From the IMG/VR virus record IMGVR_UViG_3300021963_000025, positions 135,670-199,669 of that record: 64,000 bases of DNA. One strand, written 5' to 3'. This DNA is from a virus. Its lineage: Duplodnaviria; Heunggongvirae; Uroviricota; Caudoviricetes. The position numbers and the translations under genes are program-made. A model generated the notes under the pieces. That model ran no database searches. It was not told the DNA's origin and was given only the letters and a program-made list of their open reading frames with translations. Shown here in pieces: positions 18,303 to 63,230 of this stretch; within the stretch, counting starts at the first letter, position 1, and every line of letters starts with the position of its first letter.

Positions 18303-18671
18303 ATGAAAACATTTTTAGATTATATTGCTGAGCAAAACATAACTGAGACTGAACTACAAGTATTAAACGAGTCCCTTCAAACAGAATGGACCGAAGAGCT
18401 TGAAGCAAAGGTTGACGCGGCTCTAGAGCAATTTTCAAAGACATATAAAAATGAGGACGGATCTTATAATATCCAGGCTTTCAATGATGAAATTACTAAT
18501 GAAGGAGTTTTAGGTAGTATCTTCGGAGGACTAGCAGGTTTTGCACTTGGTAAAACTGTTGGTAAAACGATTGCTAATATCCTAGGAATCCAAAGTGGTA
18601 TAATGTATGACATGTTAACTTCAAGACTAGTAGGAGCCGCTCTTGGTTCTTCTCTTGGTAAAAATCTATAA
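18303..18671 (+). CDS. Small internal head protein with CTS-like N-terminus and Gly-rich hydrophobic C-terminus
   Basis: MKTFLDYIAE resembles T4 internal-protein CTS MKTYQEFIAE; GVLGSIFGGLAGFALG. Confidence 0.5.
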   Translation: MKTFLDYIAEQNITETELQVLNESLQTEWTEELEAKVDAALEQFSKTYKNEDGSYNIQAFNDEITNEGVLGSIFGGLAGFALGKTVGKTIANILGIQSGIMYDMLTSRLVGAALGSSLGKNL

Positions 18672-19328
18672 ATGAATTTCGTAACAATTGACTTTTCTTT
18701 AAATTCCCCAGGAATTTGTATCTTCTCAGGTAATCAATATTTTTTTATTGGGTATTTAAAACCTGGAACAGGCACCAAAGCCGAACAAAAAATCCAAGAG
18801 GAATTACACTTACTTCAAGACACTCAGATCCACGATCAGCCGGATTGGACGAATAACGAGGCCTATTCGAAGAGTGAGATGATTAAGATTCAGCGCCACA
18901 CTCGAACTGCAAAGGATATTATTGATATGATTATTGAAATTATAGGCGATGATTCTCAGGTTGTGATTGCTTTTGAAGGCTCCTCTTATGGTTCTTCAGG
19001 TGGAACTAATAATATTATTGATATGGCGGCTGGAGCTGCAATCTTAAAGATGGAATTAATGTCGAGGCTTAAAGTCCATGACATGATGACTGTCGCACCT
19101 TCAACCATTAAGAAGCATGCTGGAAAGGGTAATATGAAGAAGGATGAACTTTGGGTTAAATTCCTGGATAACGTTTTAAACGATTCAGCGCTTGAAAACT
19201 CGTCACTGCTTAAATACTGTAAAACCAACATCGGAGAGACTAAAAAAGTCCCTAAGCCCTTAGATGATTTGGTGGATGCCTATTTTTTAAACCACTTAGC
19301 TCGGAACTTATTTTACCCGGAGGCTTAA
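18672..19328 (+). CDS. RuvC-like Holliday junction resolvase
   Basis: TIDFSLNSPG, IAFEG, APSTIKKHAGKGNMKKD, DDLVDAY motifs. Confidence 0.8.
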   Translation: MNFVTIDFSLNSPGICIFSGNQYFFIGYLKPGTGTKAEQKIQEELHLLQDTQIHDQPDWTNNEAYSKSEMIKIQRHTRTAKDIIDMIIEIIGDDSQVVIAFEGSSYGSSGGTNNIIDMAAGAAILKMELMSRLKVHDMMTVAPSTIKKHAGKGNMKKDELWVKFLDNVLNDSALENSSLLKYCKTNIGETKKVPKPLDDLVDAYFLNHLARNLFYPEA

Positions 19329-19336
19329 AGACATAA

Positions 19337-19367
19337 GTTATATTCAATGTTTCAGTTTTTGTTTCAA
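19337..19367 (-). promoter_or_regulatory. Reverse-oriented TTGAAAC-N18-TATAAC promoter-like element
   Basis: Reverse complement reads TTGAAACaaaaactgaaacattgaaTATAAC, matching the forward motif class. Confidence 0.45.
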
Positions 19368-19455
19368 AAATCTTAAAATATTTTTTAAGAAGGTAAATTT
19401 GTGTCTCCAGGGTAAGCTACCCCTAATAAAAAAGATATATAATTAATATAGATTC

Positions 19456-19485
19456 TTGAAACAAAAAAGAAAGTTTCTATATAAC
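19456..19485 (+). promoter_or_regulatory. Putative early/middle promoter TTGAAAC-N17-TATAAC
   Basis: Upstream of SSB; same spacing at several other loci. Confidence 0.65.
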
Positions 19486-19558
19486 TATCATAAGTAATTA
19501 AAGGGCCCTTAAGACTTATTAAATTAAAGTTTAAACAAAAATTAAAGCAATTAAAGAC

Positions 19559-20482: not shown

Positions 20483-20503
20483 TCTAAAGTTATTTTATAA
20501 ATT

Positions 20504-20533
20504 AAAGGGCTAATTAAACTTAGCCCTTTTTTT
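20504..20533 (+). terminator. Rho-independent terminator
   Basis: AAAGGGCTAA/TTAGCCCTTT stem plus T-run. Confidence 0.8.
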
Positions 20534-20545
20534 CTATATAATAGT

Positions 20546-21885: not shown

Positions 21886-21896
21886 AAGCATCATAT

Positions 21897-23883: not shown

Positions 23884-26361
23884 ATGGCACAGGTTAACAA
23901 AATCTCTTCATTTAAAAGTTTTACTGAAGTTAAGAATCAGGAAGCTTCTATGAAACTAAGAGAAGAAAACAATGCAAAAAGACAGGAAACTGTTGGTAAA
24001 ATTGGAGCAATCCTTGACGAAATGGGATTAACTTCTCTATCTGAATTAGACGAAGAGAAAAAACAAGCCCTAATCAACAAAATGTTTGGAAGCGTTTCAG
24101 AAGACGAAGCAGAAGAAATTGAAGACGAACTTAATAAATTAGGAGAACCTAAAAAATTAGAAGAGGGAAATGCATTTATTTTTGCGGCTAGTAAAGCAAA
24201 ACAAGATGGAAAAACCGAATTCGAATTTAATGGTAAAAAATATAAAGTAACCATTAAGAAAGATACAGGTCTTAAAGAAGGTAATGCTTTCGGAGATGCT
24301 GTTAAAAAAGCAAAAGAGGCTGGAGAGAAAGAATTTGAATTTGAAGGAGAAACTTACAAAGTTGAAGAGTCTATCGATGAGGCCAAAAGAACTAAATTCA
24401 CTGGTAAAACAGCGCACGATTTATATACTCAAATTGGTGGAAAACCAGTAGAGGTATTTGTTAAAAACGACTGGTACTCAGTTAACCCTTCGGAATTAAA
24501 AGACGACAAAGGTGATTATTTCACTGGATATACAAAAGACGGAAGTGATTACGAATTTTACCTAAAAGATATTGATTTTATCCAAGAATCTTTAAATGAA
24601 GGTCGTGTTAAAGCAGCTACCCTACTACAAGAATTAGTTGATGGAAATACTTCTAGAGCAGAAGGTATTAAAATGTCAAAGGGTTTAGCTGAACATTATT
24701 TATATTGGTTAAGAACTTCACCTTACGGTAAGAAAAATGCTGACTTACCTCTTTACATGTTAATTAAAGCAAGTTTTGTTTGGGGAATTGAAAGACAATT
24801 AGACCCTAAATTAAAAGTAGAACTTGAGGCCTTAAAGGGTAGCATTAAAGAATCAGTAGAATCTATTGATGAAGCTCGTTCAATTAATAAAATCCAATAC
24901 GACTGGTCTAAACTAACAACTACGATGGCTGCAACTGCACAAAATTGGAAAGCTGCCGAAGGATCCGCTAAAGAAATGTTACTTGGAAAATTAAAAGAGA
25001 TGACTGCTCAAAAGAAAGCTCTAGAAGCTGAATTGGATGCTGCTATTGCTGACAAAGACAAAGACATCGAATTGGTAGTTTCTGAAGCATTCTTTAGATT
25101 ACCAAAAGATGTTATTGGAAACGAATTATACTTAGCAACTCAAAATTTATCTAACCTATACGGTAGAACTTCAGCTGGAAATGATATTGACACTGGAGTT
25201 ATTGATACAATTATTAAAGCCCTAACAACTGTTAAAAAATCTGTTAAGAAATTTAATAACAAAGAAGAGGTTGTAGGAACTGTTTATGAAGGAGAAGTTA
25301 ATGAAGCCGATATGACCAAGTTTTACGATGGTTTTATTGTACTAGATTCAAAGGCAAAAAAGACATATAAGTTCAAGTACGTTAAAGGAACTAGTAATGT
25401 TAATGTTGAAAATGCGGCTATTGACAAATTAGTAAAAGCAACTGGAGAATCAAGAGCAAATTTCATGGTTCATGGTTTTGTTAAAAAAGGTGAATGGAAC
25501 TCAGATAAAACTGAAGTATTTGAATCTCAAGTTAATGAAGCTGAAAAATTTAAAAGTACTAAAGACTTTGAAGAGTTCTTAGAGGAAATCGATGGCATGC
25601 CAGAGGTTAGAATAAAAAGAATCATGGGTAAAGATTACATCGATACTCCAGGAGGTTTCAGAGATGAAGCAGATGATTACGATAATGACATAGTAGAGTA
25701 TACTCTTTCTAACATGGGTCGTAAAGATTTTGAAGCACTTAAAGCATGGTGGGAAAACAATGTTCAAGAATCTTTAAATGAAGGTGAAGTAAAATCTGAT
25801 GATGAATTTAAAGAATATGCAATGGCTGTTTTGAAAAAAGCATTTGGAGATGACTTTGATGAGGCAAAAGCTGGAGAAGTAGTTGATGGAATTCTTAAAA
25901 AATGCGGTGATGATTACGGAGCTGCAGTTGGAATGTTAACAAGTTCATTAGGAGAATCAGTAGTTACTGAAAGAGAAGAAACACAAATAGGTACTCATAG
26001 ATACCAAGGAAAATCATATCCTTTATATACAGATGACGAACACAATCATTATATCAAAGTAAATGGTAGAATAATTGAAGTTGATGAATCAGTAGTTACT
26101 GAAGGTTTTGATGCAAACTACTGGGAAGACTATCATGATAGTGGAGAATCTGGAAAAACAAAAAACCCAACTGGTATGCAAGTACAACAACAAGTATCAG
26201 GTTGTGTAGAAGATTGGAATGATAACAATGAAGTTGGACCTGAAAATGAAGTTACATCATCTGGAGAAAAGAAAGTCTTAAAACTTGCAAAAGAATTCGT
26301 TAAAGCAAAAGGATGGATTTCATCTGATGTTATAGATGCTATGATAGCCCAAGAATCTTAA
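23884..26361 (+). CDS. Modular internal head (poly)protein with repeated ES(L/V/I)xE protease-site linkers
   Basis: N-terminal ISSFKSFTE tag; linkers ESIDEA, ESLNEG, EVNEA, ESVVTE; tandem EGNAF...EFEF.G..YKV repeat. Confidence 0.6.
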   Translation: MAQVNKISSFKSFTEVKNQEASMKLREENNAKRQETVGKIGAILDEMGLTSLSELDEEKKQALINKMFGSVSEDEAEEIEDELNKLGEPKKLEEGNAFIFAASKAKQDGKTEFEFNGKKYKVTIKKDTGLKEGNAFGDAVKKAKEAGEKEFEFEGETYKVEESIDEAKRTKFTGKTAHDLYTQIGGKPVEVFVKNDWYSVNPSELKDDKGDYFTGYTKDGSDYEFYLKDIDFIQESLNEGRVKAATLLQELVDGNTSRAEGIKMSKGLAEHYLYWLRTSPYGKKNADLPLYMLIKASFVWGIERQLDPKLKVELEALKGSIKESVESIDEARSINKIQYDWSKLTTTMAATAQNWKAAEGSAKEMLLGKLKEMTAQKKALEAELDAAIADKDKDIELVVSEAFFRLPKDVIGNELYLATQNLSNLYGRTSAGNDIDTGVIDTIIKALTTVKKSVKKFNNKEEVVGTVYEGEVNEADMTKFYDGFIVLDSKAKKTYKFKYVKGTSNVNVENAAIDKLVKATGESRANFMVHGFVKKGEWNSDKTEVFESQVNEAEKFKSTKDFEEFLEEIDGMPEVRIKRIMGKDYIDTPGGFRDEADDYDNDIVEYTLSNMGRKDFEALKAWWENNVQESLNEGEVKSDDEFKEYAMAVLKKAFGDDFDEAKAGEVVDGILKKCGDDYGAAVGMLTSSLGESVVTEREETQIGTHRYQGKSYPLYTDDEHNHYIKVNGRIIEVDESVVTEGFDANYWEDYHDSGESGKTKNPTGMQVQQQVSGCVEDWNDNNEVGPENEVTSSGEKKVLKLAKEFVKAKGWISSDVIDAMIAQES
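24583..25785 (+). repeat. Exact 21-bp direct repeat CAAGAATCTTTAAATGAAGGT (24583-24603, 25765-25785)
   Basis: Read directly; encodes QESLNEG. Confidence 0.85.
25954..26103 (+). repeat. Exact 18-bp direct repeat GAATCAGTAGTTACTGAA (25954-25971, 26086-26103)
   Basis: Read directly; encodes ESVVTE and flanks a ~38-aa module. Confidence 0.85.
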
Positions 26362-26437: not shown

Positions 26438-26986
26438 ATGAAACACATACAATTATTCGAACAATTTATTAACGAAGGAAAAAATGACTACGTTAAATAT
26501 GTAAAAGACGCATCTAAAAAAATATTTGCACGCGGTGGTAATGGTCAAAATGTACTTGATTACTTAACAGACTTAGGAAAATATATTGATAGTACAATTG
26601 ACCCAAAGGCAGACCAATGGTATGGCCCACAAACACCATCACTATTCCAAGAATTGGTTAATAATATGGGACTCGACGATATTGAACATAATAACATATC
26701 AGGTAATAAAAGCAGTAAAAAACCAGAAGCATTTAGAGGTGCAAGTGATTTAATTGCCGTTACAAATGATGCAATTAAACGTGCTAAAACTAATGGAGGA
26801 AATGACGCTGGATGGGGTAAAGCCGCATTAGAACTTGCTGGACACCTTCAAGCTTATAAAGTAGGTGCTGGTAATGCTGGTCCTGGAGAAGACGGATTTT
26901 ATACTGCTCCAACCTTAAGTACATTTACAAGATTAGTTGATGATATTGCGATGGAAAATATCAAAAAGAATAGAGTAGCAAAATAA
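26438..26986 (+). CDS. CTS-tagged internal head protein
   Basis: Likely start MKHIQLFEQFINE at 26438 rather than 26387. Confidence 0.65.
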   Translation: MKHIQLFEQFINEGKNDYVKYVKDASKKIFARGGNGQNVLDYLTDLGKYIDSTIDPKADQWYGPQTPSLFQELVNNMGLDDIEHNNISGNKSSKKPEAFRGASDLIAVTNDAIKRAKTNGGNDAGWGKAALELAGHLQAYKVGAGNAGPGEDGFYTAPTLSTFTRLVDDIAMENIKKNRVAK

Positions 26987-26991: not shown

Positions 26992-28281
26992 ATGAAAACA
27001 AAAATCCTTAATTTTAATCAATTCATAACTGAAAGGTATGAAGTTAAATTGAATGAGCAATTATTATTAGAAGGTGGAGCCGCTGGACATATGTCGCATC
27101 CATTCGATAATAATGACCTAACATTTGGAGACTTCAAGAATATGATTATTGGTGGACTTCAAGGTGAATTAAACTTCGAAGAGGAACCTACTGAAAAAAC
27201 AGACGGTCAAAATGTATTTGCAACAATTCAAAATGGCGAGGTTAAATTTGCCAGAAATAAAACTGAGTTGCAAAACCCTATGAGTCTTAAGGATTTCCAA
27301 AATAAATTTGAGGGACATGCTAGCAAACTGGTACAAGATACCTTTCAATTTGCAGCCGCTGATTTAGCAACCCTGCTTATAAAGTTACCGGCTAAAACGC
27401 AAGAGGAAGTGTTCCAGAATGGGCTGAACTTCATGAACATGGAGTTGATATATTCTGCTAACCCTAATGTTATTCACTATGATGTTGATGTAATTCAATT
27501 TCATGGTATCAAGAAAACTGATGGTGCTGGAAATATAGTTGGAGATGACAATAGTGCGGCAAAAAGTGTTGCGGGAGTTCTTAAATCTCTAAATGCTGAT
27601 GTCGGAAAAACATTTACAATAATTCCCCCACAAGTTATTAAACTACAAAAAGATATAAACTTCGAAGAGAATCAAGCTAAATTCTTAGGAAAACTTGAAG
27701 TTCTTAGAAAGAGATATAATTTAACCGATGCTGATGCAGTTGCCCGTTACCATGAAATGTGGTGGAGAGAGCAAATTGAAGCCGCATTTGGTGACCTACC
27801 GCAAAACATCAAAGAGGGTCTATTACTTCGTTGGGCTTATGACGACAAGAAAACCTTAAATATGCGTTCATTGGACAAAGAATTAACTCCAGCTCAAGCT
27901 GAAGCAGTTAAGAAATTTGACAAAGAGGACGTTAAAAAGAAATTCAAGGAAAACATTCGACCATTTGAAGACCTTTTCTTAGAATTAGGAAGTGTTATCT
28001 TAAAGAACGCAAGTAATTTTGTTGCTGCTTCACCAGACAAAGAAATGCAAAGGCTACATAATGAAATCAGAACTGAAGCTGACAAGATTAAACTTAATGG
28101 AGACCTTACTCAAATCGACAAAGTTGCAAAAGAACTTGACCGATTAGAGAGAATTGGAGGAATCCAGTCTATTATACCGACTGAAGGTATTGTATTTTCA
28201 TACAAAGGACACATGTACAAATTAACAGGAACATTCGCTGCTATTAATCAGTTGATGGGAATTATAAAATACGGAAGATAA
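26992..28281 (+). CDS. ATP-dependent ligase/capping-type nucleotidyltransferase-fold protein, CTS-tagged
   Basis: Motif I TEKTDGQN, motif IV TEGIVF, motif V YKL; N-terminal LNFNQFITE then LLEGGAAGHMSHPFD. Confidence 0.65.
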   Translation: MKTKILNFNQFITERYEVKLNEQLLLEGGAAGHMSHPFDNNDLTFGDFKNMIIGGLQGELNFEEEPTEKTDGQNVFATIQNGEVKFARNKTELQNPMSLKDFQNKFEGHASKLVQDTFQFAAADLATLLIKLPAKTQEEVFQNGLNFMNMELIYSANPNVIHYDVDVIQFHGIKKTDGAGNIVGDDNSAAKSVAGVLKSLNADVGKTFTIIPPQVIKLQKDINFEENQAKFLGKLEVLRKRYNLTDADAVARYHEMWWREQIEAAFGDLPQNIKEGLLLRWAYDDKKTLNMRSLDKELTPAQAEAVKKFDKEDVKKKFKENIRPFEDLFLELGSVILKNASNFVAASPDKEMQRLHNEIRTEADKIKLNGDLTQIDKVAKELDRLERIGGIQSIIPTEGIVFSYKGHMYKLTGTFAAINQLMGIIKYGR

Positions 28282-28282: not shown

Positions 28283-28603
28283 ATGAAACACATTAAACTA
28301 TTTGAAGAGCATATAAACGAGGCTAATGATAAACCATCATTAGATTCTTCGACAGGATTAATTTACTATTTTGATATACCTTTCACAACAGAGGATATTG
28401 AAGAGATTTTAGCATCTAGCAAATCTATATTAAATGCAAAATTTACTCCAAATAAACAATTTGATATTCAACCAATGGTTTTTATTAAAGATAAAGTTAA
28501 TGGTGGAGAACACACTTTTAGTGTTGCACAAATTGGAATATTAGGAGCATTTTACGATAAGAATAAAAACAACACCGCATCCCGAAAAGATTTTACTAAT
28601 TAA
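28283..28603 (+). CDS. CTS-tagged small protein
   Basis: MKHIKLFEEHINE. Confidence 0.65.
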   Translation: MKHIKLFEEHINEANDKPSLDSSTGLIYYFDIPFTTEDIEEILASSKSILNAKFTPNKQFDIQPMVFIKDKVNGGEHTFSVAQIGILGAFYDKNKNNTASRKDFTN

Positions 28604-28614: not shown

Positions 28615-30486
28615 ATGGCATTACAAAAATTAAGAGAGTATTTTAACGAAACCAATAGAGAAACCTTTATTGATATGTTAAAAAATAGAGTGTTAGTAAC
28701 TGAGAAGGTTGCAGCACCTACATTTCTTGTTAAAAGAAATCTTGATGGGTTTGAATATTTTAAATCTTCAAATTCAGACAAATTAAATCTAGTTGACCGA
28801 ACTATTATCTCTCTATATGAGATTGCAATCAATTACATGCAAAGTTTGCCAAATTCGGTTAAAGGTCAAATGCCAATTGATTGGAGATTTGGTTTTGAAT
28901 ACCTTCCAGAAGTTAAAGTATCTAAGATTAAATACGGAAAGACACCAAAAAACAATTTAATATTAACTCATATTCAACAAGTTGGAGAGGGTAATAAAGT
29001 TAAGAAAACCATTAATGACCCAGTTATCTTAAATAAATGGGCAAAAATTCTTGATGTTCAACAACCAAGCGTATTATTTGATGGCTATTTATCTCAATTA
29101 CAAAGAGATGAACTTCTTGAATTATTGGCAATGGGCGATAGACAATTTAGTGAATCATTCGACTATTTACCAGAAACTAAAGACAAAACAAGTTTCACCG
29201 CTAAAATAGTTAAACTTTTTAATCCAAATGCATTCGAAACTACACTAAACGCAGATATTGAAGAGGAATTTGATGGATTGGTAGTTAATTTTATCGATGG
29301 AAACTCAATAAAATCTTTTAAATTAGAGGATTTTATCAGAAAAAATGGAATTGATACATCTTCAAGCCACATGTACCAAATTGCAGTGACTGACTTTTTA
29401 GAATTTATAACTCAATTTAATATCGATGATATACAACTTGAAGACGAGAGAGCTGACTATCGATACCTTGAAATAATGTCGATTATATTTAATGAATATG
29501 TAGACAAACACTCTTCAAAATATATTGGAGTTAATTTTGAAAGCGCTGAATTTTCATCAGCAGATTCTTTTAAATTAAATCTAAAATATATTACCGATGA
29601 AAAAACCCTGAAATATGTTTCTAACGATATTTTAGCGGAACTTTATAAAATGATTTTAGGTTCTTTTAGAAAGAAAAGAACTAAGACATCAGACTTAATA
29701 GATGAGGACACTATGAAACGTATGAATGAAATAATCGAAAAAATCAACGAAAAAATATTTGTTGAAAACACCGATGAAAATGCAATTTATGACTATCAAA
29801 ATTTCATGTTGCGCGATAAAATCAAGTCTTCAGTTAACTTAAATGAGGCACTTAAACTTACTCATGTTGAACAAGGAAAACAACCAGTAAATATGTTTGT
29901 TGGAAGATTCCAGCCATTTACATTAGGACACGCCAAAGTTTTAGAGACTATTCACAAAGAGAATGGTTATCCAGTTGTTGTATTCTTAGTTAAAGCAAAA
30001 ACCAAAAAGAAAGGTGATGAATTTAGCAGACCATACGACGAGAAGACTCAAATCAACATGTTCAATCATGTTAAAAAGCAATACCCATTCTTAAAAGAAA
30101 TATTTGTAATTCCAACTGGAGGTATCGACATTATGTTTAATGAAATGAGACCTAAATATGAACCAGTACTTTGGGGAACGGGAAGCGACAGAATGACAAG
30201 TTATGGTTATCAAGTTAATAATGATGCTTATAGAGACCAATTGAACTGTAGAGCTGATTTTGGACTTTTTGAAATTCCAAGAACTGACGATGATATTTCG
30301 GCCACTGCAGTTAGAAATGCTCTATTAGATGGTAATGAAAAACAATTCCAGAATTTAACACCAAAGGCAGTTCATGGAATGTATAATGAACTAAAATCTA
30401 AAATTGAAGACTCTATGGGAGTAGTTGCTGAAAATGTTTCTACTGAAATTATGACATTCGAACAATTTATTAACAAAGATATATAA
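28615..30486 (+). CDS. Fusion of a degenerate ligase-like N-domain and an HxGH cytidylyl/adenylyltransferase domain
   Basis: TEKVAAP...FDGLVV...FKL; LNEA linker; GRFQPFTLGHAKV, WGTGSDR, ISATAVRNAL; C-terminal IMTFEQFINK tag. Confidence 0.7.
   Translation: MALQKLREYFNETNRETFIDMLKNRVLVTEKVAAPTFLVKRNLDGFEYFKSSNSDKLNLVDRTIISLYEIAINYMQSLPNSVKGQMPIDWRFGFEYLPEVKVSKIKYGKTPKNNLILTHIQQVGEGNKVKKTINDPVILNKWAKILDVQQPSVLFDGYLSQLQRDELLELLAMGDRQFSESFDYLPETKDKTSFTAKIVKLFNPNAFETTLNADIEEEFDGLVVNFIDGNSIKSFKLEDFIRKNGIDTSSSHMYQIAVTDFLEFITQFNIDDIQLEDERADYRYLEIMSIIFNEYVDKHSSKYIGVNFESAEFSSADSFKLNLKYITDEKTLKYVSNDILAELYKMILGSFRKKRTKTSDLIDEDTMKRMNEIIEKINEKIFVENTDENAIYDYQNFMLRDKIKSSVNLNEALKLTHVEQGKQPVNMFVGRFQPFTLGHAKVLETIHKENGYPVVVFLVKAKTKKKGDEFSRPYDEKTQINMFNHVKKQYPFLKEIFVIPTGGIDIMFNEMRPKYEPVLWGTGSDRMTSYGYQVNNDAYRDQLNCRADFGLFEIPRTDDDISATAVRNALLDGNEKQFQNLTPKAVHGMYNELKSKIEDSMGVVAENVSTEIMTFEQFINKDI
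30478..30485 (+). promoter_or_regulatory. Putative late promoter GATATATA
   Basis: Exact octamer overlapping the upstream stop codon. Confidence 0.6.
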
Positions 30487-30510: not shown

Positions 30511-32616
30511 ATGAATTTTAATCAATTCCTAAACGAAAATACTTCTTCATTTGGCGGAAGAGCTGGACTTACTAAAGCTGAAACACTTAAAATTGCACAA
30601 AAATTTGCAGATGCCGCTGCTAGCGTTGACCCTGAAAAAGGAAAATGGAGTGTAAATAAAAGAACCTTAGAAGAGGATGGGTTTGACTTAGACTATAATG
30701 ACGAGGAATACGATGGTGGTTCATACAATATCTACAAAAATGGTAATGTTGTAAACATGGCTCTTCGTGAAAATCCAGTTTTAGGTAAAATTACTGACGA
30801 TATTAAAACTATTGCAAAAGGTTTTAAAAAGATGATGGCAAATGAATCAGTTACTAATGAGGCTAAATTAGTTTTAGGTTTATCAACTAACAATTATCCA
30901 GCTGGAACAATTGGTAGATATCGTATAGAATCTTCTGTAATTAACCTAAGAAAAGTTGCCGATTTATCAAAAGACTCATGGAAAAAATATTCAAGAGCAT
31001 TTGCTGACGATGAAATTGGTTTTGAAAAATCAAGTGATAGAAAAGAGGCATTAGACGCTATTCAAAAATCATTTGACAACGGACATAATGATATTAGAGA
31101 GTTTGGTTTAAATGAATCTGTAGTTAACGAAAGAAACATCACAATCAAAAGACAATACACTGATAAAAACCCTGCAGTTACTGTAGGTAAAGCTGCTAAA
31201 ATTCGTAATAGAATGTTAGAGGCTATTAAAGATGGTAAAATTTCTCAAGAGGAATTCGATACAATTCTTAAAGAAATGACAACAGATTCTAAAAGATGGT
31301 TAAGAAGAAATGCTCAATGTTTTAATGTATCTGAAGATGGAATAGCACTATCAAAAACAGGTTCAAGAATCCTTAAAAATGTAATGGTTTCAGAAGCAAC
31401 CACAAAGGCACCAAAGATTTGGGTTCCTGGAGGATTTGATAAAGAAATTTCAAAATACCCAAACCAAAAAATCACAAGAAAAATTGTATTAGATGCTGCA
31501 CTTAAATGGGATGTAGATCCGGAAGATGCAATTAAATACGTTGAATACGCTTGGGTTATTGACTTAGACGAAAATAAAAATAACAACGATATGAAAACAA
31601 AATTTATCTACGAATCTTTCCAAGAATTTGTTGAAAACAAACTAAATGAAGGTACCTTAAATGAGGCATTTAAAAGTGCTAAATTGGCTAACCTTTTTTC
31701 AGTAGGAAGTGCTAGCACTAAAAACTTAGCAGGAGCTTTCTATAATTTCTCAAAATTAGCGATTGACAAAATCGAAGATTATGACATTATTGAAATGGAA
31801 CCTCAAGCTGCACGTAAAGAAAAAAGAGCAAACGCTGTTTATTTTTATGTAGTAAATAACCAAAAAGTAAATCCATACGCTGAAACTAGTAACCCATCTA
31901 CTTGGAATAATGGACTTATTCAGTCAAATACTCTATTAGCAATAACTAATGGTCAAAATGAATGGTACTCAACAGCATACAATAGATATTCAGGAGGTTC
32001 TGAAACTTTGAAACTCGCTACTTCAAGAGAAGCTGCCGCAGGATTTGATAAAAGAGACTCTAAAAGATACGATGGTTCAGGAATTACTTCTATCACCAAA
32101 GTTGCAGAATTAGCCGATATCGCTTACGTTATTGACTTAGACGTTCTTAGAGCAAGATATTCTACACAATCTTTAACATTTAAAAGATCTGAAGATAAAC
32201 GTGGAGCTACTGCTTTCCAAAGCGACAAAGACTTTAAAGCGGCGAACAAAGCACGTTATAACGAAATCTTAGCGCAAAAAGCAGCTGCAATGCCAATTGA
32301 TGCTGTAGTATTAGGAGCTATTGATACTCTTGCTACTCAAATTAAAGATGCTCTAACTACAGGAGAAAAAGGAAGATATGGAGAACTTATTGTTGGATTA
32401 GACCCTAAAGGTAGAGAAATCAAAATGAGCGATGCTTCTAACTTAATGAGAAACATTTTGGACGAGTATAACAGATACGTTGGATATGTTGTTCAAAGTG
32501 AAAGTGAAGAAAAAGCTGGATATAGTTCAAAATTCTACGAAAGTAGATTAAAAGAAAGCGCTAAAACAATCACTGACTACGTTAAGAAAGTAGAGGCTAA
32601 AAATTACGCTTGGTAA
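30511..32616 (+). CDS. Modular CTS-tagged internal head protein
   Basis: MNFNQFLNE; linkers NESVTNEA, NESVVNER, LNEGTLNEA; second tag MKTKFIYESFQEFVE at 31591. Confidence 0.6.
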   Translation: MNFNQFLNENTSSFGGRAGLTKAETLKIAQKFADAAASVDPEKGKWSVNKRTLEEDGFDLDYNDEEYDGGSYNIYKNGNVVNMALRENPVLGKITDDIKTIAKGFKKMMANESVTNEAKLVLGLSTNNYPAGTIGRYRIESSVINLRKVADLSKDSWKKYSRAFADDEIGFEKSSDRKEALDAIQKSFDNGHNDIREFGLNESVVNERNITIKRQYTDKNPAVTVGKAAKIRNRMLEAIKDGKISQEEFDTILKEMTTDSKRWLRRNAQCFNVSEDGIALSKTGSRILKNVMVSEATTKAPKIWVPGGFDKEISKYPNQKITRKIVLDAALKWDVDPEDAIKYVEYAWVIDLDENKNNNDMKTKFIYESFQEFVENKLNEGTLNEAFKSAKLANLFSVGSASTKNLAGAFYNFSKLAIDKIEDYDIIEMEPQAARKEKRANAVYFYVVNNQKVNPYAETSNPSTWNNGLIQSNTLLAITNGQNEWYSTAYNRYSGGSETLKLATSREAAAGFDKRDSKRYDGSGITSITKVAELADIAYVIDLDVLRARYSTQSLTFKRSEDKRGATAFQSDKDFKAANKARYNEILAQKAAAMPIDAVVLGAIDTLATQIKDALTTGEKGRYGELIVGLDPKGREIKMSDASNLMRNILDEYNRYVGYVVQSESEEKAGYSSKFYESRLKESAKTITDYVKKVEAKNYAW

Positions 32617-32617: not shown

Positions 32618-33058
32618 ATGAAACACATTAAACTATATGAAGAGTTTGTAAATGAGGCTACTAATGAAATTACATTAAATGACTCTGAAGTAGATACAAT
32701 TTTTAATGAAATTGTCAGACTTACAAATATTGCAAAAGAGAGAGGATATGTTCCTGGCGTAGTTGCAGCTGGTGCTATTAAAACACCTAGTTCAAACGAT
32801 TCTATGGTAGATGCTTCTGGTGAATTTGGAGAAAATCCAAATAACAAAAAATTTAAGATTTCAAATATTACCGCAAATAATTTTCAGATACTTGCAACTA
32901 TTACATCAACAGACGGAAAACTAGTATGTTACATTACCTTTCCTTATGATGTTAAAAAGAAATCTATTTGGTCAAAAGAAGTAAACATGCGTTTTTATAA
33001 CGGAAAAGAGTCTGATTTTTCAAAAGTTAAAAGAAATCACGAAACAATAGTATATTAA
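32618..33058 (+). CDS. CTS-tagged hypothetical protein
   Basis: MKHIKLYEEFVNE. Confidence 0.65.
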   Translation: MKHIKLYEEFVNEATNEITLNDSEVDTIFNEIVRLTNIAKERGYVPGVVAAGAIKTPSSNDSMVDASGEFGENPNNKKFKISNITANNFQILATITSTDGKLVCYITFPYDVKKKSIWSKEVNMRFYNGKESDFSKVKRNHETIVY

Positions 33059-33059: not shown

Positions 33060-33569
33060 ATGAAACACATACCTACATTCGAAAGTTTTGTTAATGAATC
33101 CCTAAATGAAGCCTGGGGAATGGATGACATTGTAAAAATCCATTTTGAAACTGACCCTGATAAACAAGAGGAGCTTAAAAGAGCCTATGGTAAAAAAACC
33201 GGTGCAATGTCACGTACTAGTCAAATCGAGGCTGCTGATTATGCATTGGCTAAATATAGAAGACAAATTGGTTATGACAATGGTAAGTCAGGTAGCGCAG
33301 GTTTAACTGACGTATTTATTCCAAGTTCATCAATGGCCGCATTTTCTACAGTAGGTAATGGACCACATTCTAAGCCTAAAAAATGGAACCAAAAGGAATA
33401 CAACAAATGGATTAAAGATATGGCTGGAGACGGTGGAGCTAACCATGCATATGATATGGCACAAAATGCTAAATTTGAACCAGGACTTATTGATTGGGTT
33501 AAGAGAAATGTAGCTTATGGTGAAAAACCATTAGACAGAATTCAATGGGACATCGAAGCCTATTCATAA
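33060..33569 (+). CDS. CTS-tagged hypothetical protein
   Basis: MKHIPTFESFVNESLNEA. Confidence 0.65.
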   Translation: MKHIPTFESFVNESLNEAWGMDDIVKIHFETDPDKQEELKRAYGKKTGAMSRTSQIEAADYALAKYRRQIGYDNGKSGSAGLTDVFIPSSSMAAFSTVGNGPHSKPKKWNQKEYNKWIKDMAGDGGANHAYDMAQNAKFEPGLIDWVKRNVAYGEKPLDRIQWDIEAYS

Positions 33570-33582: not shown

Positions 33583-34119
33583 ATGAAATACATAAAACTA
33601 TACGAAGACTTCGTAAATGAAAAAGCATACCGATTAACTGGACCTTATGCCTCTAAAGGTATTATTGGTAAAGTTATGCAGGCCTTTAAAAAAGAAATTG
33701 AAAAAGTTACTTTTGAAGGAGAAGTCAAAGATACTTTAGAACAAGTTAATGGCGCTTGGGGAGATTTTAGTAAAGATGCCCAAAAAATCATTTTAGCCGA
33801 AGTTCAAAAGGCAGTAAAAGACATGGACCAAGTTGTCTATGTTCATGTTCAAGGATTAAACAAAACATGGGAGCCAGACACAGTCAATCAATTAAATAGA
33901 GACGGTGCACCATTACATATTTCAATTCTTGGAGACTTTGTAATTAATGTTGGTTTCATGGATGATGTTGATGGTAACAAATTTAAGAATAAATTAGGAG
34001 GTATGTTAAATACCGCAATTGCAGGTGGAGAAGACATTTATGGTACTTTTGACGCTGAAATTGGAGAAAATAACGTTGAAATCAGAGGTTCTGAGATTAT
34101 TCAAATAGACGAAAAATAA
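33583..34119 (+). CDS. CTS-tagged hypothetical protein
   Basis: MKYIKLYEDFVNE. Confidence 0.65.
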   Translation: MKYIKLYEDFVNEKAYRLTGPYASKGIIGKVMQAFKKEIEKVTFEGEVKDTLEQVNGAWGDFSKDAQKIILAEVQKAVKDMDQVVYVHVQGLNKTWEPDTVNQLNRDGAPLHISILGDFVINVGFMDDVDGNKFKNKLGGMLNTAIAGGEDIYGTFDAEIGENNVEIRGSEIIQIDEK

Positions 34120-34120: not shown

Positions 34121-34669
34121 ATGCCAAGTACAAGTAAAGCTCAACAACAACTTATGGGTATGGCCTACGCTCTTAAAAAAGGAGATATGGACCCAAAAGA
34201 CGCAAGTCAAGAGGTTAAAGACCTAGCAGATTCTATGACACTTCAACAGTTGAAGGATTTTGCAAGCACAAAACATGAAGGACTACCTGACCATGTTAAA
34301 GAAGGTGAAGACCATGAGGTTGGAATGGCAATGAGTCAACTTAATGCAATTTCAAAAGCAGTTGGAGAATTACTTCAAAAAATTGGAAGAGAGGAAAAGG
34401 ACCTACCAGGCTGGCTACAGGACCATATTTCACAGTCTTATAATTATATTAAACAGGCTAATGATGGTTACCATGAACTAGATGAGATGGTTTCTCCTGA
34501 TAGTATTGGAGGAATGGGAGCAACTGCTCTACCTTCACCAACATCAGTAGGTTCTGGAGACGTTCCAAAAGGTTCTGGAGATGCCAAAGAGGAAGAGGAA
34601 GAGGAAAAGAAGAGACGTAAAGAATTCTTAAAAAAGTTTAAATCTTTTGAAGAGTTTACAAGCAAATAA
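34121..34669 (+). CDS. DUF3008-like protein with C-terminal tag
   Basis: MPSTSKAQQQLMGMAYA...LKDFASTKHEGLP; ends KKFKSFEEFTSK. Confidence 0.55.
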   Translation: MPSTSKAQQQLMGMAYALKKGDMDPKDASQEVKDLADSMTLQQLKDFASTKHEGLPDHVKEGEDHEVGMAMSQLNAISKAVGELLQKIGREEKDLPGWLQDHISQSYNYIKQANDGYHELDEMVSPDSIGGMGATALPSPTSVGSGDVPKGSGDAKEEEEEEKKRRKEFLKKFKSFEEFTSK

Positions 34670-36482: not shown

Positions 36483-36803
36483 ATGAAACACATCAAATTA
36501 TTCGAAGACTTTGTAACTGAAGGTTCGGTTTGGAAAACAAGAGATGGTTTAGGAATTAATCAAATAAGCTCTAAATCTATTAACTCTGAAATTAAAAAAA
36601 TTATCAAAGCCCAAAATACAATTGAAGGTGAAGATGGTAAAATTTTAACAGACCTTGATGGAAACGTTGTTTTCTTTGAAGTTCCTACTGTTGGAGAAGA
36701 TGTTGCTTCTGAATTAGGTGGAAAAACAGTATCTAAAATAACAACAAAAGATGGTTTATCAAATGCTGCCTCTTCAAGAGGTGGAGTAATGGTAATTATC
36801 TAA
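36483..36803 (+). CDS. CTS-tagged small protein
   Basis: MKHIKLFEDFVTE; GATATATA at 36456-36463. Confidence 0.65.
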   Translation: MKHIKLFEDFVTEGSVWKTRDGLGINQISSKSINSEIKKIIKAQNTIEGEDGKILTDLDGNVVFFEVPTVGEDVASELGGKTVSKITTKDGLSNAASSRGGVMVII

Positions 36804-46888: not shown

Positions 46889-47971
46889 ATGGTTCCAATT
46901 AAGCTTTTTGAAGAATTCTTGTACGAAGAAAATCTTAAAAACAAATATGCTAAAAAAGTAGCATGGGTTATGAAAACTCATGATATTCATGCAACTTCAG
47001 GTGATGTGAATGGCCGCGAAAAGAAATACAATATTGCCGCAAAAGGTAATTTATTTCTAAATTATGCAACCAAAGAAGATTTTGAAAACGATAAAATCGT
47101 TGTTCCTGATAATGTTCCAATCCTTTATTACGGTGGAGCAGTAGACCCAGAAGCTATTGGATTCTTAAAGAATAAAGGTATCAACAATGATAATCTTTAC
47201 AACAAAAGAGAATTACTTCCAATCTCTGGAGACAAAGTAAAATTTGCAAAAGCAGCCGCAAAATTTGATTGGCTTCCAAAAACAGTTTTCACAAAAGAGG
47301 AGGCAGTCAATGGAGATGTTGGTTTCCCAGTTATTGCAAAAATAAAAGATGGCCATAGCGGACTTGGTATTCAAAAGTTTGACACTGCAAAAGAACTTGA
47401 AGATAGCAAAGACGAATTCGATATCTTTTGTCAATTTATAGATTTTGCAAGAGAATATAGAGTAATGTTTTGTAGAGACAAGATTTTTGTTATTAATGAA
47501 AGAGTACCGAGAATTGAAGATGACCGTTCGATTAAAACAAAAACTGCCGATGAAAAAATAAGTTTCACTTATGTTTATCAAGACAGAAAGAAAGTCGACC
47601 CTGAATTTATTGAAAATGTGCTATCAATTTGCAAAGACGTTAAAACATTCTTAGACCTAGACTTATGGGCCTTAGATATTGTCGTAGATAAAAAAGGTAA
47701 AATGTGGATTATGGAAACATCATCTGCAACTGGACTTGGAAGCGTTAAAATGTGCGAAGTTTATAAGGCAATGTACGAAGATTTTTATGGAGAAGCGCTA
47801 GATGATGAATTCTTAGAGGATATTTACCTAAAATATGTAGTTCCTGGACATCAAAATTACTATCCAAAATTTAAAAAAGAAATTGAGTCTTCTCAGTGGC
47901 CAATGGACTATAAAATATTGACAGATCCAAAGGCAAAAGATGGATATCGATATTTTTTTAATTTAGATTAA
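46889..47971 (+). CDS. RimK-like ATP-grasp ligase with CTS-like N-terminus
   Basis: DK, LPKT, FPVIAKIKDGHSGLGI, QFID..REYRV, ALDIV, IMETSS; starts MVPIKLFEEFLYE; GATATATA at 46862. Confidence 0.8.
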   Translation: MVPIKLFEEFLYEENLKNKYAKKVAWVMKTHDIHATSGDVNGREKKYNIAAKGNLFLNYATKEDFENDKIVVPDNVPILYYGGAVDPEAIGFLKNKGINNDNLYNKRELLPISGDKVKFAKAAAKFDWLPKTVFTKEEAVNGDVGFPVIAKIKDGHSGLGIQKFDTAKELEDSKDEFDIFCQFIDFAREYRVMFCRDKIFVINERVPRIEDDRSIKTKTADEKISFTYVYQDRKKVDPEFIENVLSICKDVKTFLDLDLWALDIVVDKKGKMWIMETSSATGLGSVKMCEVYKAMYEDFYGEALDDEFLEDIYLKYVVPGHQNYYPKFKKEIESSQWPMDYKILTDPKAKDGYRYFFNLD

Positions 47972-49051: not shown

Positions 49052-49384
49052 ATGAAACATATCCAATTATTTGAAGACTTTATAAATGAGGCTTCTGACG
49101 CAAAACCAGCAATTTTAGTTAAATTATACAATGAACTATCTAAAGCCAAAAACAAAGTATCACTTTCTTGGGAATTTGATAGAATGGAAGAGTTTCCACA
49201 TGTTGTTAAATTTGCAAATGGATTAGAATCTGAAGCACATAGACATGAAGGAGATATGGAAGAATTTTCATTCTACCTAAATGATGATGGTAAAACTATC
49301 TTAGGAATCTATGATTTAAACGGCTACGCTCAAGAGTTAAAAACTCCAAAGGATGCTATTGTATGGTGTAGAGCCAACGAATAA
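49052..49384 (+). CDS. CTS-tagged small protein
   Basis: MKHIQLFEDFINE; GATATATA at 49025. Confidence 0.65.
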   Translation: MKHIQLFEDFINEASDAKPAILVKLYNELSKAKNKVSLSWEFDRMEEFPHVVKFANGLESEAHRHEGDMEEFSFYLNDDGKTILGIYDLNGYAQELKTPKDAIVWCRANE

Positions 49385-59691: not shown

Positions 59692-59707
59692 GGTGTCTAA
59701 GCTGGAA

Positions 59708-59737
59708 TTGAAACAGAATCAACAATCCATTATATAA
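59708..59737 (+). promoter_or_regulatory. TTGAAAC-N18-TATAA promoter-like element
   Basis: Upstream of the late sigma factor. Confidence 0.55.
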
Positions 59738-59758
59738 ACCTAAACTAAATAAAATAAA

Positions 59759-60130: not shown

Positions 60131-60618
60131 TGTCAATTAAGAATTTAAAACCAACCAAAAAATCCGGATTTAATCAAGGATATTTTAATCCCAAGAACCC
60201 TGAAAAATACATTGGACCATCTCCTATTATTTACAGAAGTTCTTGGGAATATAAGTTTATGATTTGGTGTGATATCAATGACAAAGTCCTTTGTTGGTCC
60301 AGCGAGCCTGTTGAGATTAAATATTGGTCGCGACAGGGAAACAAACAAAGAACATATCACCCAGACTTTTACTTTAAAATCTTAAAACAAGATGGCTCAA
60401 GCGAGGAATTTCTTGCTGAGATAAAACCAAAAGAACAAATACAAAAGCCAAAACCTCCGGCAAACCCAACTAAAAAAAGCTTGGCATCCTACAAATTTCT
60501 TACCGAGCAATACATTAAAAACATGGATAAATATAATGCTGCTAAAGAATATGCGGCAAGTCGTTGTTGGCGATTTATTGTCCTAACTGAAGATACAATT
60601 AAAAATGGGTTACATTAA
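60130..60618 (+). CDS. gp4: Head completion nuclease (gp4-like)
   Basis: PKNPEKYIG, IYRSSWE, WSSE, YHPDF, EIKP, FIVLTE. Confidence 0.9.
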   Translation: MSIKNLKPTKKSGFNQGYFNPKNPEKYIGPSPIIYRSSWEYKFMIWCDINDKVLCWSSEPVEIKYWSRQGNKQRTYHPDFYFKILKQDGSSEEFLAEIKPKEQIQKPKPPANPTKKSLASYKFLTEQYIKNMDKYNAAKEYAASRCWRFIVLTEDTIKNGLH

Positions 60619-61240
60619 ACAAAGAATAGCCGAGTTGAGCAAAGAATTTGGAGGTAAAGTAAAAGCTTCTATTGCATGCATGGAATGGTTTGAGGCTGGA
60701 GTTAAGTCTAAAACAACAAATGAGGCAAAAATGACCCGAACTCGATTTCAACCCGGAAAGATTTATGTTTTTAAATATGACCCAAAATATAAAGAACAAC
60801 TTCCGTGGTTCGATCAGAATCCAGTAGTATTTGCAATAGAGCAAGTTAATAATAATGACTTAGGAATTAATTTAAACCTACTACCAGTTCCATACAAAGA
60901 AAAACTATTGGATGAACTATTTACCAAAATGAATATCAAAGTCGATAAAAAAGAAACAGATATAATTTCTGAAATTCTTGGGCTTGAAAACTCAAGTGGG
61001 GTTGATGCACTTAAAGAAAAACCTCTCCGAATAACTTATGAGGGAATCAAAGCATATCTTGAAAAGGATGGATATGAATTTGCCCTAAGACAATATATAC
61101 CTTCAAGAAAAAAGGACCAAGCTGTTGTTAGTTATTCAAAATGGCCAGAAATTGCACTATGTGATTTCTTCCACTTTAAGAACACAAATATAATGGCAGT
61201 TCGATTAATGTTTAGAGACTATTTAAAAAAGAATATATAA
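60605..61240 (+). CDS. gp2: DNA end protector (gp2-like)
   Basis: PGKIYVFKYDPKYKEQLPWFDQNP, GINLNLLP. Confidence 0.85.
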   Translation: MGYIKQRIAELSKEFGGKVKASIACMEWFEAGVKSKTTNEAKMTRTRFQPGKIYVFKYDPKYKEQLPWFDQNPVVFAIEQVNNNDLGINLNLLPVPYKEKLLDELFTKMNIKVDKKETDIISEILGLENSSGVDALKEKPLRITYEGIKAYLEKDGYEFALRQYIPSRKKDQAVVSYSKWPEIALCDFFHFKNTNIMAVRLMFRDYLKKNI

Positions 61241-61262
61241 CTTAAATTAATATAATAATATA

Positions 61263-62858
61263 ATGGCAGGATTTGTACAAAGAAATGGTCCATTGACTAA
61301 GCGACCTTTTAACCTAAGTAGTACCCTTAAGAAGTTATCTTCATTTGGTATGTACTACGATGACTTGGTGCTTAGACAATCTCAAGCAATTGGGCCAGTA
61401 GAAGATGAAATTGGTTACGGCCAAATGAACCCAACTGGACTTGATAGTGATGATATGTATGGCGCATTTGCAGCCCTTTCGATGGCTGATACTACAATGC
61501 GTAAGAATATTCCATTTTTTGACCAGGCATATCGTGGTAAAAGAGATGAACTTAGAGCATTCGCGCAACATGATGAGATCGAAGACATTTTAGATATACT
61601 TTGCGATGAATCGATTGTATATGACAGTAAAAACTTCATGGCAAATCCAGAGATTATTGGTATGGAAGTTTCTGAAGATGTTCAAAAATATCTTAATAAA
61701 GCATATAGAGACCTTTACCAATATTTTGGATTTAACTTAGACCAATCAGCTTGGTACTTCTTTAGAAAATGGTTAATTGACGGTTACCTTTCATTCGAGA
61801 TTATTTATAATCCTGAAATGACCGAAGTTATTGGATTTAAAGAAATTGACCCAATCACATTGGTTCCAGGATATAACCACGAAGATGGTAAAAAAGTTTG
61901 GATTCAGTTTAAAGACGATCCAGTTAAACAAAGAAAATTGTATGATTCACAGATTGTGTACATATCATACTCTTCGATTACTACTGCATCAAGGGTTTCT
62001 TACCTTGAAAGACTTGTAAGAGCATTCAACTTAATGAGAATTATGGAGCATACCAGAGTTATTTGGGCTGTTACAAACTCTTCTTATAGAATGAAATTTA
62101 TTATACCAGTCGGTGGTAAATCTAAAACAAGAGCAAAACAATCCCTTGCTCAATTAATGAATAACTATAAAGAAGTTGTTGATTTCGATTGGGATAGTGC
62201 ATCCCTTACAACTAACGGTAAACCAATGTTACAATTTAACAAAGAATATTGGTTACCTAGTAAAGACGGAGAACAACCTGAGATTGAAACCCTTGGTGGT
62301 GATGGTCCAGAATTAAGTGACACAGAATCCCTAAAATATTTCTCAGATAAACTTAAAGCAGTTTCAAAAATTCCTTACAATAGATTCATGTATGAAGATG
62401 GTGGAGGAGATTTCAATCTAGCAGCCGATGGTATGATTAGAGATGAGATTAAATTTGCTAAGTTCATTAATCGTTTACGTAGTTCATTCCAAGAGATATT
62501 GATTAAACCATTATGGATTCAAATGTGTCTTAAATTCCCAGAATTTAAAGAGGACGCAGGATTCAGAACTCAAATTGCCCTAAGATTTAACGAAGATAAT
62601 ATGTTCGCTGAATTAAAGACAATGGAAATCATGCAAAAGAGACTTGAGTTCATCGGTACAATGAAAGATTCATTAGTTAAAACTGATCCAATGACTATGG
62701 AAGAGACTCCATACTTTGATATGGAATTCTTAGTTGATAGATACTTAAAACTAAGTCCAGATGACAAAGCAGCAAATGAGGCTTATAAAGCCAGAACTGC
62801 CGCTAAAAAAGCCGAAGAGCCAGAAGTTGATCCAATGGCTGCAATGGGAGGAATGTAA
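61263..62858 (+). CDS. gp20: Portal protein (gp20-like)
   Basis: FRKWLIDG, SYLE, EYWLP, IETLGG, YFSDKL...KIP, RDEIKFAKFINRLR. Confidence 0.93.
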   Translation: MAGFVQRNGPLTKRPFNLSSTLKKLSSFGMYYDDLVLRQSQAIGPVEDEIGYGQMNPTGLDSDDMYGAFAALSMADTTMRKNIPFFDQAYRGKRDELRAFAQHDEIEDILDILCDESIVYDSKNFMANPEIIGMEVSEDVQKYLNKAYRDLYQYFGFNLDQSAWYFFRKWLIDGYLSFEIIYNPEMTEVIGFKEIDPITLVPGYNHEDGKKVWIQFKDDPVKQRKLYDSQIVYISYSSITTASRVSYLERLVRAFNLMRIMEHTRVIWAVTNSSYRMKFIIPVGGKSKTRAKQSLAQLMNNYKEVVDFDWDSASLTTNGKPMLQFNKEYWLPSKDGEQPEIETLGGDGPELSDTESLKYFSDKLKAVSKIPYNRFMYEDGGGDFNLAADGMIRDEIKFAKFINRLRSSFQEILIKPLWIQMCLKFPEFKEDAGFRTQIALRFNEDNMFAELKTMEIMQKRLEFIGTMKDSLVKTDPMTMEETPYFDMEFLVDRYLKLSPDDKAANEAYKARTAAKKAEEPEVDPMAAMGGM

Positions 62859-62879
62859 TTAAATAAAAATATAGATAAA

Positions 62880-63230
62880 ATGAAAATAATTAAAACATTT
62901 GAGGAATTTACAAATTCACTTCAAGAAGATGCAATCGATGCAGGTGAAGATTCAAAAGTAGTAGTTGATGATGTTACTCTCGACTCAGGAAAAGAAATTA
63001 AATCAACTGAAATCTTAGGTACGATATTGTCGTCTAATAGTGAAAAAGATTTTAAAGACTATTTCTATAAAGAGTACGGAAATACAGCGTTTACTGAAGA
63101 GGATATGTTTACTCTAGTTAAATTTTATAACGATTATCAAGAGGAAGTTGCCCAAAAAGAAAAGGATGCTGAAAAAGATGCAGAAGGTGGAGATGCCGGC
63201 AAAGAGGAAGACCCACTAGCCGATATCTAA
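62880..63230 (+). CDS. Acidic prohead core-like protein with CTS-like N-terminus
   Basis: MKIIKTFEEFTNSLQE; lies between portal and protease like T4 gp67/68. Confidence 0.55.
   Translation: MKIIKTFEEFTNSLQEDAIDAGEDSKVVVDDVTLDSGKEIKSTEILGTILSSNSEKDFKDYFYKEYGNTAFTEEDMFTLVKFYNDYQEEVAQKEKDAEKDAEGGDAGKEEDPLADI

Follow-up and report, generated by a model that had tools for sequence, protein, structure and literature searches.

In the last third of a 199,669-bp IMG/VR virus contig, a 64,000-nucleotide window covering positions 135,670 to 199,669 of the record IMGVR_UViG_3300021963_000025, and elsewhere on the same contig, we found a short leader peptide shared by about 30 proteins with no other relation to each other, or roughly one in ten open reading frames (ORFs). 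This leader, or tag, has the consensus M-K-x-[IV]-K-L-[FY]-E-x-F-[ILV]-N-E (residues 1-13) and is likely to be a T4-type capsid targeting sequence (CTS) that has been lengthened to 13 residues and forms the basis of an expanded system. The phage is an uncultured, distant relative of T4 with a full genome of roughly 270 kb; its contig is linear, with 34% G+C, a CheckV completeness of 74%, and nearly all genes on the + strand. Coordinates without a prefix refer to the window and those marked “genome” to the whole contig, and the tag-bearing and head genes of the window described below all lie on the + strand.

The leader peptide and its likeness to the T4 targeting sequence

A 10-column position matrix was built from the tags and all six frames of the contig were scanned with it, which yielded 27 strong copies, each at the start of a + strand ORF. 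In 26 of the 27 the motif begins exactly three residues past the Met, giving a 13-residue leader, and three weaker N-terminal forms (MKTFLDYIAE in gene 18303, ...ISSFKSFTE in gene 23884, and MNFNQFLNE in gene 30511) bring the carriers to about 30 in total. The shuffled-proteome control gave 0-4 matches (mean ~1.5) in 20 shuffles of 62,757 residues, at a much lower score threshold. A preliminary description of the window had listed 13 N-terminal tags, and each of them proved to start an ORF with the quoted N-terminus, including the one at 26438, whose Met lies within the longer ORF 26387; the two C-terminal copies that it reported were found at the ends of ORFs 28615-30486 and 34121-34669. Beyond the window there are three runs of tagged genes, at genome 1790-3020, 66248-69808 (ten of them), and 84499-87430, with single tagged genes at genome 110120 and 124513. 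That the sequences following the tag are unrelated, as had also been proposed, holds at the sequence level, since BLASTP among the 27 tag-stripped proteins returned no pair at E<=0.01, and the two carriers modelled with AlphaFold have different folds (2H phosphoesterase and GNAT-like).

In T4, IPIII is packaged by virtue of its first 10 residues alone; within the CTS, targeting depends on residues 4 and 7 and processing on residues 8 and 10, and the protease gp21 cleaves behind L/I-x-E, a specificity initially recognised at a Glu-Ala bond (PMC9026906). According to the T4 record, IPII and IPIII start with MKTYQEFIAE and IPI with MKTFKEFTST; what the preliminary description says of the T4 CTS and of gp21 cleavage after (I/L)xE agrees with both sources. 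When the two leaders are aligned from the cleavage end, T4 positions 4, 7, 8, and 10 correspond to tag positions 7, 10, 11, and 13, and the best-kept tag positions are F/Y7 (25/26), F/Y10 (25/26), [ILV]11 (24/26), and E13 (25/26). Aromatic residues thus stand at the equivalents of T4 Y4 and F7 in 25 of 26 copies each, and an [ILV]-x-E processing site ends the leader. In 18 of 27 tags, Glu13 is followed by A, S, or G, against an expectation of 19% (binomial p=6e-8), which fits the Glu-Ala bonds cut by gp21. The phage also encodes a prohead protease of the gp21 family (45.6-46.2 bits to Peptidase_S77, cut-off 27; 63300..64000, truncated by the contig end), which is preceded at 63267 by the promoter-like motif GATATATA discussed below and lies near the gene for a T4-type portal protein, gp20 (Pfam Portal_T4, 237 bits; 61263..62858). 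With four functional T4 positions kept in the tag and a Peptidase_S77 protease encoded by the phage, the earlier interpretation of the tag as a T4-type CTS is supported.

The leader most similar to that of T4 belongs to a 122-aa protein encoded at 18303..18671. Its 10-residue sequence, MKTFLDYIAE, is almost identical to MKTYQEFIAE, with matches at M1, K2, T3, aromatic 4, aromatic 7, I8, A9, and E10, and it differs at only four positions, two of which are aromatic-for-aromatic swaps. The homologue of this protein in a closer relative, IMGVR_UViG_3300012346_000380 (hereafter G001), starts with MKTFVQHLEE.

Overall, the tag resembles the T4 CTS in being a short leader at the extreme N-terminus of otherwise unrelated proteins, with an aromatic pair spaced three apart followed by [IL]-x-E, in a phage with an S77 (gp21-family) protease gene near the portal gene. 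The C-terminal tag copies recall T4 Alt, which is processed at both ends, its propeptides being removed by gp21. The differences are also considerable, as the leader here has 13 residues rather than 10, there are about 30 carriers rather than a handful, the cargo is mostly acidic or neutral and partly enzymatic, the same site doubles as a polyprotein linker, and there are several lineage-specific leader classes in a system known from sequence alone.

The helical hydrophobic moment of the leader is 0.54, about twofold that of its shuffles (0.29 +/- 0.14). In both AlphaFold models the leader is a low-confidence N-terminal appendage before a confident globular domain, with pLDDT <50 for residues 1-14 in one cargo and for residues 1-3 and 5-12 in the other. 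We propose that such a short amphipathic leader, with a putative hydrophobic face of I4, L6, F7, F10, and I11, would dock the newly made protein to the scaffold or core during prohead core assembly. The gp21-family protease would then cleave behind Glu13 of the [ILV]-x-E site, where the next residue is mostly Ala, Ser, or Gly, and the mature protein would be freed inside the head and would probably exit with the DNA at the next infection. The proteins addressed in this manner would include an Acb1-like phosphodiesterase, a protein with a GNAT-like fold, and multi-module polyproteins that use the same cutting site as linkers.

Enzyme-like tagged proteins and leaders in related lineages

One of the tagged proteins is, by its sequence and structural model, a predicted cyclic-nucleotide phosphodiesterase and a recognisable anti-defence enzyme. 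This 180-aa Acb1-like protein (genome 2478-3020; leader MKKIKLFEEFLNE) matches Pfam PF23474 (Acb1, anti-CBASS) with 31.5 bits against a cut-off of 27, and also phrog_755, which we take to be the family of T4 57B. Its AF2 model has a pLDDT of 87.5, and the top Foldseek matches are the Acb1 structures 7T27 and 7T26 (E 3e-6, TM 0.48-0.60), followed by other 2H enzymes; the sequence match to 7T26 is weak (E 0.013). The earlier suggestion that the cargo probably includes anti-defence proteins is therefore borne out for at least one tagged protein, which is Acb1-like by profile, sequence, and model fold. Among 398 metagenomic homologues, we aligned 46 that cover every leader class seen, and the motifs H61-x-T63 and H136-x-T138 are invariant in them. 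While the catalytic domains are 47-96% identical to the query, the N-terminal 9-24 residues form distinct classes, namely the 13-mer (MKxIKLFEEFxxE), the 10-mer MIKLxDLLxE, ...KLAGIITE, and ...MGLxE. All of them share a hydrophobic-x-Glu ending, and no aligned sequence departs from the Glu. T4 57B is without a leader, and the Acb1 homologues of Maribacter phages align only from residue 35, so that no matching leader is shown for them.

The most conserved cargo (genome 67888-68442) has a GNAT-like fold in its model (pLDDT 88.9), with a likeness to GNAT acetyltransferases at E 2e-4 and a TM of ~0.5. This second cargo family has the same leader classes, and the tag is internal in its longer fusion proteins.

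By portal identity, the nearest database record is the metagenomic “huge phage” LR756500.1 (462 kb; 58%), and portals at 32-37% identity belong to other LR7565xx records, Lak phages, Sphingomonas phage PAU (32%), and Tenacibaculum phage PTm1. G001 is much closer, with a portal 80% identical, and its 256,444-bp genome has direct terminal repeats and is rated complete. About 23 of its genes are tagged, all on the coding strand. In a wider exact-codon scan for K-L-F-E-E-F-I-N-E, 43 IMG/VR contigs were recovered, and 123 of the 146 matrix matches in those loci sit three residues after a Met, mostly where small genes are arrayed in tandem. The 10-mer class appears in IMGVR_UViG_3300042291_000844 (238 kb, L075:9141-10549), in which three adjacent genes that are otherwise different start with MIRLRDLLTE, MIKLKDILKE, and MIKLLEILQE and form a small island on the strand opposite most of their neighbours. 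The MIKLxDLLxE class is also found on many metagenomic Acb1-like and GNAT-like homologues, and no leader of this class was found in the present contig or in G001. LR756500.1 has a variant, MKYIKEYEEF[IV]xE, at N-termini, together with a C-terminal copy (...FIKTFNEFKTEYK); its 41-kb head region has no tag, and its tags lie elsewhere in that genome. None of the leader patterns tried was found in Tenacibaculum phage PTm1.

In the cultured Sphingomonas phage PAU (JQ362498.1, 219 kb), 17 genes start with MK[TS][LI]xxL[YF]E, with no such start on the other strand or in the control. These genes cluster around the portal, protease, and scaffold genes and include the scaffold gp152 as well as gp142 and gp154, which the depositors annotated as “internal capsid proteins.” PAU belongs to the same broad portal group and shares an N-terminal leader among 17 genes that ends in hydrophobic-aromatic-Glu, although its leader differs in sequence and is shorter. 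We found no paper describing the PAU leader in the literature searched.

Taken by their sequences, these phages each apply a lineage-specific leader to many cargo proteins, and stand-alone tags interchange with polyprotein linkers (...VNE/A and ...LDE/A in G001; here and below, a slash marks the end of a leader or linker). Variation of the leader between lineages around a fixed cutting site would be expected if the leader binds a co-evolving head-core partner and is then removed. Short terminal peptides also send diverse enzymes inside the HK97-fold shells of encapsulins. In contrast to what is proposed for the tag, these cargo-loading peptides mostly sit at the C-terminus and attach to the shell protein itself, no protease takes them off, and what they load is not passed on to a second cell. 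In phiKZ-like giant phages (SPN3US, 201phi2-1), a T4-related prohead protease processes many head-internal proteins after x-x-Glu, and the propeptides of ejection and inner-body proteins are thought to be targeting signals (PMC5694885). By contrast with the tag, those propeptides have 80-130 residues, have no one short motif in common, and obey an A/S/G-x-E rule where the tag has [ILV]-x-E. The T4 CTS, the phiKZ-like propeptides, and the varied internal proteins of T-even phages are all described in the literature that we searched, and neither an expanded, lineage-coded system nor a tagged Acb1 was found in it.

The ribosomal protein bS21 is encoded by G001 (C1:141831-141971) and two other relatives, G002 and G003, and was not found in the present 74%-complete contig. 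Phages that encode bS21 and have a “prohead core scaffolding and protease” gene have predicted Bacteroidetes hosts (PMC9723584), a parallel that hints at a host among the Bacteroidota.

Alternative explanations

It might be asked whether the conserved element is a peptide at all. Were the conservation at the level of nucleic acid, the tag could represent a translation-initiation region in Shine-Dalgarno-poor phages, which would be in line with its A/T-rich first codons, the over-use of AAA (Lys) and CTA (Leu), and the presence of bS21 in relatives (the gene being known from such phages; PMC9723584), or else a promoter-leader cassette for gene shuffling, as modules do move between genes at tag and linker positions. 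We regard this as very improbable. The usage of TTT/TTC, GAA/GAG, AAT/AAC, and ATT/ATC/ATA in the tag is close to the genome-wide proportions, as is that of the Q codons, with an excess of AAA, CTA, and CAC (His) only. Upstream of their start codons, the tagged genes also differ in sequence, and because synonymous codons vary as well, the conserved thing is the peptide rather than a DNA repeat or cassette; selection acts on the tag peptide. In addition, the Glu and the hydrophobic residue two positions before it are kept across leader classes of quite different sequence, and copies at the C-terminus or inside a protein can have no part in initiation. A DNA repeat or recombination cassette was rejected on the same grounds of synonymous variation and differing upstream sequences. 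The tandem arrays of similar-sized small genes might instead suggest one diverged paralogous family with the N-terminus as its best-conserved part, but there is no pairwise similarity past the tag, the two modelled members have unrelated folds, and Acb1 homologues outside these phages (T4 57B, Maribacter phages) are without the leader; we give this reading hardly any credence and have rejected it.

If the tag is a peptide signal, its destination might be other than the capsid, such as the lumen of the tail or baseplate, a replication compartment, or regulated cytoplasmic proteolysis, with the leader acting in sorting, assembly, or chaperoning. The conserved tagged gene at genome 124513, which sits among baseplate and tail genes and has a weak Dit_C match, and the occurrence of C-terminal and internal tag copies would be consistent with this. 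However, the motif ends in a site of T4-type prohead protease specificity and matches the functional CTS positions, a protein encoded between the portal and protease genes is tagged, the PAU proteins with an analogous leader include annotated internal capsid proteins, and no identified portal, protease, polymerase, replication, tail, or baseplate protein on the contig carries the tag, all of which makes a destination outside the capsid improbable. A somewhat better, though still unlikely, alternative is that the leader does target the prohead and is cut, while most carriers are disposable core or scaffold-like proteins (cf. T4 gp67, gp68, and gp22) that are broken down and expelled before DNA packaging and do not serve as delivered effectors. 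In its favour, T4 core proteins are acidic and so are many mature products here (pI 4.1-5.5), the protein in the gp67 position is tagged, the PAU scaffold gene bears the PAU leader, and the polyprotein-like genes are rich in cutting sites. On the other hand, the models of the Acb1-like and GNAT-like cargoes show compact enzyme domains folded with high confidence, a scaffolding role is implausible for Acb1, about 30 different core proteins would be unprecedented, and the small tagged proteins of this phage are depleted in internal [ILV]xE sites (43 observed, 65 +/- 6 expected).

The interpretation as an expanded, T4-type CTS system, which we favour, has to be set against several observations that weigh against it. 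The tag matrix scores the T4 CTS at just 7.9, because the three extra N-terminal residues differ, and the link to T4 is therefore one of four positions and context rather than of overall similarity. The tag of the gp67-position protein is without the final Glu. Whereas the internal proteins of T4 are basic, the median pI of the mature cargo is 5.5, and with most of it in the acidic to neutral range, part of the tagged set may be core components that are degraded rather than effectors that are injected. Avoidance of internal cutting sites gave opposite results in the two phages, since the depletion seen here is absent from the tagged proteins of G001 (61 vs 61), in which [ILV]xE[ASG] is enriched, probably because of its multi-module proteins. 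Tagged genes have a G001 homologue in 14 of 27 cases (52%), compared with 136 of 195 non-tagged genes (62-70% across comparison groups), and a faster turnover of tagged genes is not significant (p=0.08, or 0.27 against size-matched genes), so that an arms-race signature of turnover was dropped. Finally, the genes for the major capsid protein and scaffold are missing from the 74%-complete contig, and this phage and its close relatives are known only from metagenomes.

Tagged genes of the window and what they may mean

Pfam and PHROGs are blank for most tagged proteins, the exceptions being the Acb1-like protein, a DUF5824 protein, and the weak ATP-grasp and Dit_C matches. The first large cargo gene of the window (23884..26361) encodes an 825-aa multi-module, polyprotein-like protein with the weak N-terminal tag ISSFKSFTE, an internal tag-like copy (TKDFEEFLEE, about 25558), and GATATATA at 23842; pieces of this protein are scattered across several tagged G001 genes. 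It is followed by tagged proteins of 182 aa (MKHIQLFEQFINE; 26438..26986), with no Pfam or PHROG family, and 429 aa (MKTKILNFNQFITE; 26992..28281). The latter has a 60% identical homologue in G001 and another in LR756500.1, which bears that phage's own leader, MKFLKSYEEFLNE. A tagged 106-aa protein (MKHIKLFEEHINE/ANDKPSLDSS...; 28283..28603) is a module (...HINE/ANDKPSLDSS) that is internal in G001, where it comes after the linker in ...ESIVNE/ADEKPSLDSS. Likewise, the module of the 701-aa protein with the short 9-residue leader MNFNQFLNE (30511..32616) is found in G001 in a longer frame, after the linker ...ESNELDE/A. Sequence searches of the PDB and the ESM Atlas were empty for both the 701-aa and 429-aa proteins, and Pfam gave no lead for the former.

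The two C-terminal copies occur on a 623-aa cytidylyltransferase-like protein (28615..30486), with IMTFEQFINK at ~30448-30477 and the end ...IMTFEQFINKDI, and on a DUF3008 protein (34121..34669) that ends in FKSFEEFTSK. Their G001 homologues end in ...VLTFEQFKLN... and ...KSYESFIFEKYGKL, respectively, and both motifs are thus kept although the flanks have diverged. Between these genes and beyond 30511 lie tagged proteins of 146 aa (MKHIKLYEEFVNE; 32618..33058), 169 aa (MKHIPTFESFVNE; 33060..33569), and 178 aa (MKYIKLYEDFVNE; 33583..34119), the last with a G001 homologue that is also tagged. An untagged DUF2828/DUF7788 protein (35019-36455) sits amid this run of tagged genes. Three further tagged genes each have GATATATA 19 nt upstream and encode proteins of 106 aa (MKHIKLFEDFVTE; 36483..36803), 360 aa (MVPIKLFEEFLYE; 46889..47971), and 110 aa (MKHIQLFEDFINE; 49052..49384). 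The 360-aa protein is weakly ATP-grasp-like, with every match below the Pfam cut-offs. Outside the window, two tagged proteins of this genome (L002:1790-2491 and L004:6508-6915) match separate segments of the 740-position phrog_2859, which is in line with small cargo modules that other phages join into long proteins.

The motif GATATATA occurs in 29 copies on the + strand and none on the - strand, and nearly every copy has a start codon 4-34 nt downstream. The genes found behind it are large structural ones, that of the protease, and nine tagged genes or heads of gene runs; its position before both virion and tagged genes suggests a promoter-like element common to the two. We infer that the linked genes are late in timing. 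The preliminary description had many tagged genes following this motif, which is true of 5 of its 13 window genes and, across the genome, of nine tagged genes or cluster heads (at 4-34 nt), and is not true of the remaining tagged genes, which sit downstream within the same gene runs. One copy, at 30478-30486, overlaps the last codons and stop of gene 28615-30486 (AAA GAT ATA TAA), so that the C-terminal tag-like peptide and the promoter-like motif share DNA.

In the head region, a small acidic protein in the position of T4 gp67/gp68 (62880..63230) lies between the portal and protease genes and has the tag-like N-terminus MKIIKTFEEFTNS, while its G001 homologue has MKKLIKTFEQFIFE/A. For comparison, the T4 gene order is 20-67-68-21-22-23 (T4 record). 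Next in G001 come a 604-aa protease-scaffold fusion, which is the homologue of the protease here, and then the major capsid protein, which starts with MAQLINE/AEIRETWSPIIE/A and thus has [IL]-x-E sites near its N-terminus too.

Several other features of the contig were observed. Outside the window, 24 tRNA genes are arrayed at genome 4.7-10.1 kb (4696-10140), and among them are two GIY-YIG-like ORFs whose N-termini are near-identical (RRKYHYIYKTTCIIT). A stretch of ~7 kb at genome 87.8-94.6 kb, also outside the window, comes after a copy of GATATATA at genome 87775 and has only short, doubtful + strand ORFs along with four minus-strand genes; no tRNA and no Rfam family at the gathering threshold was found there. 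In the window, a 398-aa ORF at 50284-51480 matches only part of the DNA polymerase of T4-like cyanophages, and the gene for the polymerase may be split.

If the leader works as it does in T4, its sequence would mark the proteins that are carried in the head and probably injected, which normally require virion proteomics to find, and the injected proteome of uncultured phages would become readable from sequence alone. Beyond this, there is an about even chance, in our judgement, that a broader account applies to a large uncultured group of T4-like phages of 200-260 kb, probably of Bacteroidota, in which lineage-specific address labels would co-evolve with the head core and preload a tenth of the gene products, including ready-made enzymes of counter-defence such as Acb1 that arrive ahead of any phage gene expression, and in which modules would shuttle freely between stand-alone and polyprotein forms.

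Under the same condition, the leaders would offer additional packaging tags beyond that of T4, and most of the ~30 cargoes, being without a known family, would make a short list in which to look for new functions in host takeover or anti-defence. Combined with the protease-scaffold fusion, the leaders of the different lineages would provide a natural system for the co-evolution of cargo recognition and the capsid core. In particular, the tagged Acb1-like enzyme suggests that anti-CBASS activity may be delivered pre-made, which would change the view of the timing of defence and counter-defence in these phages.

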